Below, one piece after another: positions 4,114-63,590 of a stretch of 64,000 nucleotides of DNA. Within the stretch, counting starts at the first letter, position 1. Each line of letters starts with the position of its first letter. The stretch covers positions 53,754,001 through 53,818,000 of the forward strand of contig OX597825.1 of NCBI GenBank assembly GCA_951406725.2, written 5' to 3'. Source of the DNA: Octopus vulgaris. Taxonomy: Eukaryota. A model generated the notes under the pieces. The model was not told the DNA's origin and did no database searches. It saw only the letters and a program-made list of their open reading frames with translations. The position numbers and the translations under genes were made by a program.

Positions 4114-4640
4114 TATATAAACAAAGTACACTTTAAATATTCTTACTAATGTCTAGTAAACGAACCGTCACGTAAACAAATTCAAAACATTAGAGTTCGC
4201 CGGTTAAATATATTAAAACACGGAGTAAAAGCAACCGTTCTGATCATTTTGGCCGCCATGGGTTTTTCAGTAAATCACTAACTCATCTATAACTTTTGTA
4301 TTATCCTCTCAAATTACACCAAAATCTCAGGCAATAACAAATAATATCGTATTTATTGTCTGTGAAAATTATAGAATATAAAACAACTTTGATATGTATA
4401 GGTATATTTTTGAATATAGCCCTCTCTTTTACTCTTTTACTTGTTTTAATCATTTGTCAGCGGCCATGGTGGAGCACAGCCTTTAGTCGAGAGAATCGAC
4501 CCCAGTACTTATTCTTTGTAAGCCTAGTACTTATTCTATCGGTTTCTTTTGTTTCTATCGGTTTCTTTGATAAAAAATTATATCTACTTTTCTGACGAAA
4601 ACAATGCCGTTCTGAACATTTTGGCCGCCACTGCACTGTA
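3235..4640 (-). mobile_element. Tc1-family DNA transposon, 3' end and right TIR missing
   Basis: Transposase ORF plus 5' terminus reading TA-CAGTG(CAGTG)GCGGCCAAAATGTTCAGAAC on the minus strand; the same 22-bp motif recurs internally near 4237-4258. Confidence 0.9.
4422..4567 (-). mobile_element. SINE family B, 3' fragment inside the Tc1 5' region
   Basis: Reverse complement of about 2800-2930. Confidence 0.88.
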
Positions 4641-25284: not shown

Positions 25285-25340
<56 letters not shown>

Positions 25341-25343
<3 letters not shown>

Positions 25344-25680
25344 TTTGTCTCATTTGGTCTAAAGTCGTAAGACAACCACCGTTATATTTTGTTTATCCAT
25401 TACTGTTTTCAATTTCGTTTTCGTCTCTTGTATTTACATCCGTCTCTTGCGTTTACATTCTTGTCTTCTACCAAGAAATCTAATGCTTACAGCTTAGTTT
25501 TTTTCTTGTGGCTGGCCGAGTTGGAGCAAATATCAGAATTGAACAGCCGAAATTTGCTATGATGATTCGGTGTCTGACTGAAGATTGAAGGCTTCGAATG
25601 ATTTGTCTGTGTTCCGTGTTCGTCCCTTCCTGTATTTCACGTTCTTTATATATAAAAACATTTATTCAAACATTTATTCT
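25341..25680 (+). mobile_element. TA-embedded non-coding element with reverse-order hammerhead motif
   Basis: Homologous to the reverse complement of 30645-31020; flanked by (TA)n on both sides. Confidence 0.75.
25515..25593 (+). ncRNA. Hammerhead-like motif, non-canonical strand order with kink-turn
   Basis: gccgagttg-GA-gcaaat-A-tcaga-attgaac-agcc-GAA-atttgc-tat-GA-tgattcggt-g-tctga-CTGAAGA-ttgaa-ggct; all helices pair. Confidence 0.65.
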
Positions 25681-25704
25681 TATATATATATATATATATA
25701 TACG

Positions 25705-29983: not shown

Positions 29984-30041
<58 letters not shown>

Positions 30042-30044
30042 AAA

Positions 30045-31020
30045 AATATATATATATAAATACAAAATGGGACAAGGACGCAAAACACTCAAAGAGACGA
30101 CACAAAAGACGGACGGGTCATTCGAAGCCTCTAATCTTCAGTCAAGCATTAGATTTCTTGGAAAAAATAATAGTAATAACAGGACAAAAACAGCATGTGT
30201 CTTACGACTTTAGACGGTTCAACTTAGCTTAGCTGGCGTATTTGGAAAAAAATGCCTTTGCGGCAGACGAAGAAAACGATGTTTTCGTGGCGGTGGTCAC
30301 GTGAGAGGAGAAGAGAAAGAAAAAAAGGGGGCAAAGGAATCAAAGAGAGAGAGAAAAAGAGGGACAAAGGCACCGACGGGGGGGAAGAGAGAGAAAGAAA
30401 GAATTAAAGAGGGGAGAAGAAAGAGAGCGTGCCAAGGATTGGCTTGGCGACAGAATCAGTGAGGTGCAAAGTGAGAAAGACAGAGAAATGTGAGAGAGTG
30501 GGGAAAGAGGAGACCAAAGAATCAGAGGCAAGAAAGGAGAAAGTCAGAGGCTAGTGAAGTATAGAAAAAGTGTGTGTAGAAGTCGTACAATAGTGGAATG
30601 CTTACATACATAAGAGAACAAGATGTACGTTACGCCATAATAATATATGTATAAAAATATATATATAAAAATATAAAATGGGACGAGAACGCAAAACATT
30701 CAAAGAGACGACACAAAAAACAGACGCGTCATTCGAAGCCTCTAATCTTCAGTCAAGAACCGGATCATCCTCGCAATTTCGGCTGATTAATCTTGAGATC
30801 GCTCCGATCCGGCCAGCCCCAAGGAAAAACTAAGCTACGAGCATTAGATTTCTTGGAAAAAGAATCGAATGTATACGAAACAAGGACAGAAAAACGGACG
30901 ATGCCACACGAATATAAATACAAAAAACAATAATAGTAATAACAGGACAAAAACAGCGGGTGTCTTACGATTTTAGACAGTTCAATTTAGCTTAACTGGC
31001 GTATTTGGAAAAAAATGCCT
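30045..31020 (-). mobile_element. ~975-bp non-coding element: two direct repeats around a purine/pyrimidine-skewed spacer, between TA tracts
   Basis: About 30045-30257 and 30645-31020 share aaaatgggac...ttcgaagcctctaatcttcagtcaag and both end ggcgtatttggaaaaaaatgcct; the left copy has internal deletions. Confidence 0.8.
30737..30813 (-). ncRNA. Hammerhead-like motif, non-canonical strand order with kink-turn (best copy)
   Basis: Minus strand: gccggatcg-GA-gcgat-C-tcaaga-ttaatc-agcc-GAA-attgc-gag-GA-tgatccggt-tcttga-CTGAAGA-ttaga-ggct. Confidence 0.7.
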
Positions 31021-31037
31021 ATATATATATATATATA

Positions 31038-32600
31038 ATTATTGCAGCATCTGTTTGTTAGCTGTTGCTGGAAAGGTCCTCTGTTGGGTAATGTTGGATA
31101 GATTGCCTCTGCACATTGCTGATGAGGTTCTAACAGAATTAGAATGTGGGTTTATGGATTGTAGGAGTACTATGGATATGATATTTTCAGCTAGACAGTT
31201 GCAAGAGAAGTGCATCGAACAGAATATGGACTTATACCAGGTTGTCATTGCCCTAACTATAGCGTTTGATTCTATCAATAGAATTGCACTTTGGGAGATC
31301 CTAATAAAGCTAGCCTGCCCTGAAAAATTTGTGAGAAAGCTTAGACAGTTTCATGACCAGATGGAAGTGAAAGTTAATGTTGGAGGTACCTTATCAGATC
31401 CATTTTCTGTACAAAATGGTGAAAAGCAAGGTGATATGCAGCACATGGTCAATGCGATTTGTGTAACATGTGCAGCATTGGGTCTAACGATCAATCCAAT
31501 AAAAACTGTTATAACGTCCGCTCCCGCCGAGATGTATGTGGAACCTTTTATAAGTGTGAATGGTCAAAGGTTGGAGACTGTACTTAGATTTATTTATTTG
31601 GGAAGTACCTTGAGTACTGCTGGTTTTGATAATGAAATGTCATACAGGAAAAGCAGGGATAGTGCTTATGGTAGGCTTGATAGGCGTCTGTGAAAACACC
31701 ATAATGTATCTTCACAAATTAAAGTTTATATAACACATGCGTCCTCCCATCTTTGCTATATGGAAGTGAGGCATGGGTTGTTTACCATAGGCAGGTAAGG
31801 CAATTGCAACGATATTATCAATACTGTCTGAGAGAAATTTGGGGGATGAACTGGAAAATGGTTATTAGTAATGTGGGGTTGTAATGTGGGCTATTAGTAA
31901 TGTGGGGTTGCATGAGAGGATTGGCAGTATAAGTATAGAGTCAATGATTTTGCAAAGATATTTGAGGTGGGGGGACATTTGTTAAGGATGAGTGATGAGC
32001 GACTGCCCAAGCAGCTATTGTATGGTGAGCTGGAAGATAGCAGGAGACCAACTCATAAGGTGTAAGGATTGCTTTAAATTGCTCTAATACAGACAGGAAT
32101 TAGGAGAGGGAGGCACAAGGCCATGATGGATGGAGGAAGATAGTGCATGATGGTTGTTCAAGGTCTGAGAGGGAGAGAATGAAGTATGAGGGAATTAGGA
32201 GGGGGCTTAGAAGGAGGACTCTGGAAAGTAAGGGAGTGTTGATTTTTATGTGTGTGGTTTGTGGGAGGGGGTGTTTGAGATGTGCAAGCTTGGTGAGCCA
32301 TCAAAAGTCGCAGGAGAAATCGACCCATGATAAACAGTGATGTGGCTATTAAACTTCTCTACAAAACAAGTGTAAAATATAGGAGGATTTGCCTCTCAGT
32401 GGGAGGTCTAAAAATACATGTTAAGAGAGTGCATATGATGGCACCTGTTTCTCCTTCCAGCCAACACAGTTTTCCTGTATGTAATAAATTGTGTAAAAGC
32501 TTTGCTGCGCTTAACTTAAACCTCATATAAGGGTATCACAATGATGAATCATTTCAGTAAATCTTCTTGGCAATAGCTTTTCTCGTGTAACGGGGGTGTA
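31038..32600 (+). mobile_element. RTE (BovB-like) LINE, 5'-truncated, with internal RT deletion
   Basis: CGF...RSTMDMIFSARQLQEKCIEQN, FIYLGSTLS, LPSLLYGSEAW, RMSDERLPKQLLYGEL, then degenerate zinc-finger-like motifs; the YADD segment is absent. Confidence 0.92.
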
Positions 32601-62839: not shown

Positions 62840-63590
62840 ATATATGTATATATAATTTCTTTTTTAAATGGAATAAGAACGTAACGGACAATTAAAGCAT
62901 ACGGACAGATAGACGATACAAAGACAGACAGGAAAAACCAGGATGGGTCATCTGCGGCCCTCTATTCATCAGTGAAGCTTGCAATTAACATTACAGTTTC
63001 AGCCTGTTACACTTCAGACTATTCAAAACTGGTAACCCCACCCCACAAAAAATCTAAGATAAGGGCATTAACGTTTTGGAAGAAAGCAGGCGAATGTGTA
63101 CAGCACAGACAAAAAAATAACGGAGAAGATTACAAAGACAAACAACAAAAGAAAAACAAAATGTGTCTTTTGACTAATAAAGACAAGTTAAGTTCAGCTG
63201 GCGTGAGGAGTGAAAGCCTTGTAGCGCAAACATAGAGGAAATTCTGAACACAGAAAATCAAGGTGTTGCACGGGTACAGGTCAGGCCAAGAAGGAAAGAT
63301 CATACTTGGCCGAACACCGGTCACGTGGAAGGAGTAGAGAGAGGTAGGGGCAAATTGAAGAATTAGGGAAGAGAGAATGTGAGAGAGACACAGAAAAAAC
63401 GTACATATGAGATAATGAAGGAAAGTAGAAAGTTTAACGAAAGAGAATGCCAAGCAACGTGTGAGATGGGAAGCGAGAAAAAGGAAGAAGGAAAGGAAGA
63501 AGACAGTATAAGGGGGACTAAACGAAGGAGAAATAAAAGTTATACAGAATTTAGATACATATTTACTTACAAGCATATATATTGCACCTG
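62840..63590 (-). mobile_element. Diverged relative of the 30045-31020 element (one repeat plus spacer)
   Basis: Shares gggtcat...tcatcag, ctaag...gcatta...ttgga and ggtcacgtg followed by a purine-rich tract. Confidence 0.6.
62956..63036 (-). ncRNA. Hammerhead-like motif, non-canonical strand order
   Basis: Minus strand: ttaccagtttt-GA-atagt-C-tgaagt-gtaaca-ggct-GAA-actgt-aat-gt-taattgcaa-gcttca-CTGATGA-atagag-ggcc. Confidence 0.6.

Follow-up and report, generated by a model that had tools for sequence, protein, structure and literature searches.

The window analyzed here, a 64,000-nucleotide stretch of Octopus vulgaris DNA, carries copies of a non-coding retroelement whose RNA probably adopts a rearranged hammerhead-type fold. 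A conserved kink-turn would bend the arm of stem III backward, so that a single RNA could assemble the core and likely cleave itself after A25532. With a little less assurance, we favor the broader proposal that this RNA represents a seventh natural hammerhead arrangement, in which CUGANGA is split from stem II and a clamp and a hinge are present, and that it acts as a widespread 3' ribozyme of animal retrotransposons, among them Naiads, RLE-type LINEs and their non-coding derivatives. The hammerhead blocks run in the order S (site), G (GAAA), C (CUGANGA). The layout is present near the 3' end of retrotransposons from two unrelated classes, Naiads (which are Penelope-like elements) and RLE-type LINEs. 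If the proposal is true, non-circular RNA permutations would move from metatranscriptome contigs to animal genomes, in thousands of copies.

Strand order and covariation of the split core

The plus-strand copy lies in a 5'-truncated, non-coding insertion of subfamily A (25340–25685) with (TA)n on both sides. Its motif begins with the 5' strand of helix P0 (25456–25470), which pairs with 25585–25600 and closes the domain according to both covariation and folding. The Px hairpin (25471–25509) lies between this strand and stem II; position 25509 is T here and G in most subfamily A copies. The 5' strand of stem II, from position 10.1 onward, is followed by the non-bulged strand of the kink-turn (25515–25525), which consists of the outer (NC) helix strand GCCGAGTTG (25515–25523) and the dinucleotide G2n A1n (25524–25525). 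The stem III strand GCAAAT (25526–25531) forms the C helix of the kink-turn and ends in U16.1. H17 is A25532, and cleavage is predicted 3' of this base by analogy with hammerheads. The 5' strand of stem I (25533–25537) precedes the 3' strand of stem II with G12 A13 A14 (25544–25551) and the bulged strand of the kink-turn (25552–25571), which comprises the stem III strand ATTTGC (25552–25557), the bulge TAT (25558–25560), G1b A2b (25561–25562) and the NC strand TGATTCGGT (25563–25571). After a single linker base, G25572, come the 3' strand of stem I and core nucleotides C3 to A9 (25573–25584; TCTGA at 25573–25577 and CTGAAGA at 25578–25584), and the 3' strand of P0 (25585–25600) begins directly after A9.

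A second complete motif, of subfamily B, was found on the minus strand (30730–30871; H17 at 30797, core at 30752–30746), with GA at 30804–30803 and 30769–30768 and the bulge GAG at 30772–30770. It has no linker base ahead of its 6-bp stem I. This motif belongs to a partial tandem insertion (30036–31020, minus strand) whose second unit lost most of the motif to an internal deletion, leaving a C block at approximately 30094–30146. Over 182 nt the subfamily A and B copies are 78% alike. A third copy, from an older subfamily, is decayed and has lost the GA of the bulged strand (62927–63115, minus strand; nhmmer E 1e-31). Part of a LINE reverse transcriptase, 238 codons long, lies at 31020–31770 (frame L031) and was apparently the insertion target of the subfamily B copy.

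The original prediction had placed a kink-turn consensus in the stem III extension of both complete copies, and the quoted letters were found in place in the plus-strand copy and in the minus-strand copy (approximately 30737–30813). It missed that stem II is not adjacent to CUGANGA, its 5' strand lying at 25510–25514.

Strand order was examined in an alignment of 58 copies. Of 185 motif matches in fetched loci, 151 were distinct; the 89 that were full-length were reduced by removing 23 young copies as redundant, together with eight that had large deletions, insertions or rearranged ends. The search patterns for old copies avoided both young subfamilies, and one such pattern gave 27 matches against none for its control; among copies outside subfamilies A and B, 1081 pattern matches were obtained against 74 for a reversed control. 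The alignment was built from sequence only, with the CUGANGA and GAAA of the old subfamilies imposed by the search pattern. The named structure paired 83.7% of cells, and 183 cells had changed on both sides. None of 500 shuffles, which ignore relatedness, reached the observed pairing, both-side changes or covariation score; two of five covariation measures fell within the shuffle range (reached by 53/500 and 114/500). Slid controls paired 25–43% of cells. Pairing was high in stem III (92.4% of cells, with both-side changes at four of five pairs), stem I (90.8%, four of six pairs), stem II (80.5%, four of six pairs) and the two helices of P0 (90.2% and 84.3%), and ranged from 70 to 88% in Px. 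The NC helix was the weakest (71%), in part owing to an alignment offset between subfamilies.

The order obtained from covariation is P0a, Px, IIa, NCa-GA, IIIa, H17, Ia, linker, IIb, GAA, IIIb, bulge-GA-NCb, Ib, CUGANGA, P0b. The reversed block order that had been predicted, S-G-C, is thus borne out by covarying stems in the 58 copies. The strand directly after A9 pairs far upstream in P0. The 5' strand of stem II comes after the Px hairpin near the 5' end, at a distance of 68 nt from the downstream core, and two helices, P0 and Px, stand between A9 and 10.1. Both complete window copies contain the hammerhead core, C3–A9 (CUGANGA), G12–A14, A15.1–U16.1 and a non-G at 17, and stems I, II and III surround it with covariation. 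In 41 rows unselected for the kink, U16.1 was present in 35 and a non-G at 17 in 39, which is consistent with the predicted cleavage position after A25532. Single-strand folding, which cannot represent a pseudoknot, gave z scores that were not significant (−0.87 and −0.64, with a range of −0.6 to −1.5 over both strands).

Conservation and predicted bending of the kink-turn

Both complete window copies have the elements of a standard kink-turn, namely a C helix, a 3-nt bulge, G1b·A1n and A2b·G2n pairs and an NC helix. The original prediction depended on conservation of the GA/GA pairs and the 3-nt bulge in the family alignment, and both are fixed in the majority sequences of all seven multi-member subfamilies, with variable neighboring bulge letters. 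A lone eighth row, which belongs to no multi-member subfamily, has lost one GA/GA position. Among the 41 unselected rows, G2n was kept in 36, A1n in 39, G1b in 35 and A2b in 39; positions L3 (16/41), 3b (20/41) and 3n (16/41) were variable in the same rows. The base pair ahead of the bulge flips between C:G and U:A, with 24 both-side changes. All four G/A bases and the 3-nt spacing were intact in 27 of 41 old copies, exactly the number predicted by neutral decay (approximately 0.9 per site). Single genomic copies therefore show no selection, and the constraint sits on the source elements, with its signal between subfamilies.

At −1b:−1n and 3b:3n both window copies have C:G and U·G. The C:G at −1 and the G at 3n resemble Kt-7-type kink-turns (parts of PMC8191799 and PMC5061560), from which the window motif differs in that its C helix is stem III of a predicted ribozyme. 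According to the rules in the available part of PMC8191799, C:G with U·G folds in metal ions alone, C·C at 3b:3n does likewise, and U:A folds weakly. By these rules the window kinks are predicted to fold in Mg2+ without protein. The combination of U:A at −1b:−1n with U·U at 3b:3n, which the octopus Naiad shares with two old subfamilies, should fold weakly in ions.

The consequences of bending were estimated with a crude helix-axis model of two rods and linkers of 0–2 nt. The NC end lay 28–31 Å from the stem II tip at a 50° kink and 54–61 Å away at 120°, with 54–70 Å over the range of 120–180°. We infer from this model that the cis fold requires a sharp bend between stem III and the NC helix, in line with the original suggestion that the kink allows the reversed connectivity within one molecule. 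In the fold predicted for copy B, P0, Px and the NC/III arm would form first as a nested scaffold. Both strands would pass from stem III into the NC helix, the arm would have to turn sharply, and a kink-turn of 50° would give that turn. The hinge could thereby bring the stem III loop into kissing contact with the C half of its own RNA, and P0 and Px would stack, the nick between them keeping the unjoined A9 and 10.1 adjacent.

The original prediction also raised the dependence of cleavage on a host protein. A reading in which the fold is right but cleavage is gated by Snu13/15.5K or another L7Ae-family kink-turn protein is unlikely. L7Ae-family proteins bind the standard consensus (PMC5061560, as excerpted), the bulged strand of subfamily A matches box C, and the relatives with U:A and U·U, a combination weak in ions, are consistent with such gating. 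However, the C:G and U·G of the window copies are predicted to fold in ions, the commonest 3b:3n combination in the unselected rows, C·C (14/41), is also ion-folding, and relatives with a plain bulge lack the kink-turn altogether. Host-protein dependence is thus unlikely for the window copies. That the subfamilies with U·U at 3b:3n are switched by a host kink-turn protein is a tentative and rather doubtful addition. A natural kink-turn in a ribozyme would nonetheless be a handle for protein-gated cleavage.

Two other known motifs were rejected. A box C/D motif was discarded since box D is absent (opposite box C the window copies have UGGA or CGGA) and box C is lost in other subfamilies. SECIS elements have RUGA on the 5' side and a non-canonical helix closing the apical loop; the window motif has the opposite polarity, with its loop closed by the canonical helix, and lacks an upstream ORF.

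The carrier element and the same fold in other retrotransposons

The carrier is a retroelement of approximately 700 nt, non-coding and often in tandem, that is likely Penelope-mobilized. More than a thousand of its copies bear the motif in the genome. Subfamilies A and B are young, as the 40 best matches of each (of 1755 and 1399 first-look candidates) were 98–100% identical. The subfamily A monomer is 692 nt long and contains no ORF, its longest stop-free frame spanning 100 codons. A query with the 3' tail returned 30 loci, or 24 distinct arms. Twenty-two of these share one 3' end, 141 nt past the predicted cut (the query required reach near there), and two extend 36 nt beyond it. Partial tandems with a spacing of about 690–706 nt occurred in 7/24 arms, two arms form one inverted pair, and all 24 run into (TA)n. 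A fixed 3' end, a tail, 5' truncation and tandem or inverted arms mark Penelope-like elements in the available parts of PMC8557442 and PMC11167929; the carrier has a fixed 3' end, an optional 30–40-nt tail, 5' truncation, tandem and inverted arms and a (TA)n target.

The search for an autonomous partner of subfamilies A and B found none. A Penelope-type ORF next to one motif copy (L055), inverted relative to it, defined a family in which 30 loci contained no linked full motif; one of these loci is the query's own inverted neighbor and one has a partial motif match upstream. Pfam gave no name for any of the three pieces of this ORF. Upstream of old-subfamily copies, homology ended within approximately 850 nt and no ORF was present. 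A second conserved block, TACGCCAGC followed some 20–40 nt on by GTC-N-AAGAC, was observed upstream in young and old subfamilies (window 25356–25376 region and 30990–30950 on the minus strand; upstream parts of L090, L080 and L078).

Many insertions span the predicted cleavage site uncut. Five of the 24 arms have 5' ends at stem II' and the core, at +13 to +20 and not at +1, and in our own reading of 120 rows about 19 copies began at +2 to +13 and about 15 at −2 to −34 relative to the site. This scatter fits cleavage with trimming and polymerase stalling alike, and was given no weight. Contigs from four sequencing runs, none of them recorded as RNA, likewise yielded no ends and no informative joints. 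Several subfamily B arms or junctions (L039, L040, L045, L050 and window 30144) start at or near the stem I'/CUGA boundary, possibly reflecting a polymerase stall on first meeting the pseudoknot.

The pile-up of 5' ends downstream of +1 would also suit an RNA that folds correctly but has lost useful cleavage and serves the reverse transcriptase/endonuclease as a signal to bind or stall. An anole Penelope-like element inserted without hammerhead cleavage, with no reads ending at the site (PMC11167929, in the part available). Such a signal is improbable here, however, because the complete core (variable N7, U16.1–A15.1, non-G17) recurs in unrelated contexts and a binding site needs none of these features. 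In a cleaving RNA, the reading we prefer, cleavage would trim read-through tandem transcripts to unit-length RNAs, as proposed for non-LTR retrozymes, and uncut RNA would also serve as template.

The 3' part of octopus Naiads has the fold and the kink in unrelated sequence, with 463 pattern matches against none for the control and the GA/GA bases kept in 22–26 of 27 loci. At one locus (L256), the reverse transcriptase motifs DKA, DFSTLY and YIDD lie upstream of the motif on the same strand. The carrier-family profile had no match at the Naiad motif, which shares the fold, not the sequence, with the window element. The window element is like Naiads (Craig et al., 2021, PMC8557442, as excerpted) in its (TA)n targets, partial tandems, inverted 5'-truncated arms and 30–40-bp tail, but differs in having no ORF and no sequence likeness to their motif. 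Near-identical counterparts of Naiad_Obim and Naiad_Ovul, both of which carry the same fold with a kink-turn, are present in the genome.

Other Naiads were read by eye, not computed, in parts of the PMC8557442 supplement (54 Naiads in all, some outside these parts). The same topology was seen in Naiad_Bfor, with an extra helix at the hinge; in three Acropora Naiads, with a 7–8-nt bulge; in Naiad-2_Movir, with GA/GA in reversed polarity and a 5-nt bulge; and in Naiad_Plae, with a 3x6 loop. Naiad_EuTe probably has it too, with a 1-nt bulge that does not fit the crude cis geometry of our two-rod model. The topology was decayed in Naiad_Esco, nematode Naiads had a core in the ordinary order, and the motif was not found in bivalve Naiads in these supplement excerpts. 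Spider, ostracod and crab Naiads in the same excerpts have a C-run ahead of CUGANGA, with GAAA at least 50 nt upstream. Three diverged Naiad-like motif variants with different 3' tails (L198, L199 and L209) suggest further families. In the available parts, Craig et al. reported no canonical hammerhead in Naiads and tagged eight as "half core" with no structure given (PMC8557442); the split-core fold is a candidate answer to the apparent absence of hammerheads from these elements.

An octopus RLE-type LINE also has the fold, approximately 430–660 nt after the endonuclease in the 3' UTR, in 17 of 30 loci (L569–L598); the corresponding pattern gave 1131 matches in the octopus genome against none for its control. 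One locus (L582) has a 622-codon frame piece with reverse transcriptase and endonuclease motifs. The hinge in this LINE is a 4-nt A bulge with no GA/GA (e.g. L582, L594 and L598). Because this LINE and several Naiads have a plain bulge, the hinge is general and the kink-turn is one solution. Stems I and II of the LINE closely resemble those of Naiad_Plae, a hint of module exchange between retrotransposon classes. A LINE with a cut ahead of its 3' end would call for a tandem or circular template.

Sequence collections were scanned with a motif-only pattern that included GA/GA and fixed N7 as U (slightly looser for viruses), followed by a four-helix filter; the resulting counts are not frequencies. 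The filter passed 4 of 119 metagenome matches among those listed (L356, L391, L399 and L455), 1 of 103 genome-collection matches (L530) and 0 of 85 viral matches. On known loci it passed 30/30 of subfamily A, 19/20 of subfamily B, 6/90 of the old subfamilies and 5/27 of Naiad. P0 and Px, absent from the search pattern, fold clearly in L356, L391, L399 and the near-miss L419, and weakly in L455. L530 and the near-miss L476 lie past the end of an ORF whose relatives encode a reverse transcriptase, a cysteine-histidine knuckle and a PD-type endonuclease stretch. From these features the host element is read as an RLE-type LINE, which we take to be HERO-like, and its occurrence in bacterial bins probably reflects animal DNA. 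Two contigs filed as bacterial (L568, G001:C302, with several tRNA-like repeats, and L567, G002:C69) have eukaryote-type LINE ends with the motif and are likely animal DNA. A recurring bacterial-looking sequence just under the filter (L430, L396, L450, L506 and L536), with stem I at 2–3 of 5 pairs, is probably coding and a chance match. If the proposal is true, standard hammerhead descriptors would overlook a ribozyme class at retrotransposon 3' ends, LINEs included.

The core could in principle be built between two RNAs or tandem units, with a roughly straight NC/III arm whose stem III loop kisses the C half of the other molecule. Tandem copies are common (7/24 arms), PMC10085705 (in the part available) cites cleavage of Penelope-associated hammerheads as dimers, and a straight arm would be compatible with the variant that has a 1-nt bulge. 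Such a domain swap is quite improbable, as a kink-turn kept in seven subfamilies, in Naiad and in unrelated contigs would be useless in a straight arm, and the motif is present at single-copy LINE 3' ends. The cis fold with a bent arm remains our preferred reading.

Comparison with known ribozymes

Hammerheads of types I, II and III are unknotted three-way junctions with the cyclic order C-G-S, whereas the helices of the window RNA cross. The nearest described RNAs are the type-SGC/CSG hammerheads (HRIMA-1), which are non-circularly permuted (Eckert et al., 2023, PMC10085705, as excerpted here and below). The window RNA shares with them the cyclic S-G-C order, a short stem I–stem II linker, the same core letters and a helix that connects the distal ends of stems I and II, here the NC helix of the kink, which joins the strand after IIa to the strand before Ib. 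The same kissing topology was validated in that study, which also found the bridging helix to be required. In contrast to type SGC/CSG, no stem II strand follows 0–2 nt after CUGAnGA in the window RNA; all three block links are closed, and the chain opens between A9 and 10.1 via P0 and Px. Eckert et al. assumed that the CUGAnGA–stem II link cannot be interrupted, and if our reading is true, the working rule that the two are inseparable is overturned. On this sequence evidence the split-core RNA would work like a hammerhead yet lacks the adjacency that defines each type described so far.

The 0-nt link between stem III and the bridging helix was left unexplained in the available parts of PMC10085705. 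Unlike in those RNAs, stem III of the window RNA is joined to the bridging helix on both strands via the kink-turn (a bulge in relatives), a candidate answer to the puzzle of the linkerless connection. The word "kink" had no matches in the accessible text and supplement of that article. The kinked split-core layout was not found in open-licence PubMed Central and bioRxiv, although the supplementary figures of Eckert et al. could hold related variants.

The carrier is also like the non-LTR retrozymes (bioRxiv 10.64898/2026.07.22.740005, in part) in its non-coding tandem units of a few hundred nucleotides and its Penelope-like ties. Each tandem unit (692 nt) has a hammerhead-type motif, as in retrozymes, but this motif is not type I. 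Retrozymes were defined and searched by type I models in that work, so a split-core layout would be missed; the available portion mentions neither kinks nor cephalopods.

An ordinary type-SGC hammerhead, with stem II formed from the GGCY a few bases past CUGANGA and the upstream GGCTG incidental, is very unlikely: this pairing holds in 70.3% of cells and its covariation score was reached by 3/500 shuffles, but the core-closing pair is broken in 28/58 rows against 4/58 for the upstream strand, a 5-nt insert after A9 is needed, the segment is already taken up by P0 pairing, and collection matches reach at best 1–3 of 5 pairs.

Rfam models gave no window matches at gathering and none relevant at E values up to 10, and the output of a repeat finder was dominated by microsatellites. 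Elsewhere in the window, a 159-nt inverted repeat with 97% complementarity pairs positions 2802–2960 with 4393–4551, 1.4 kb apart.
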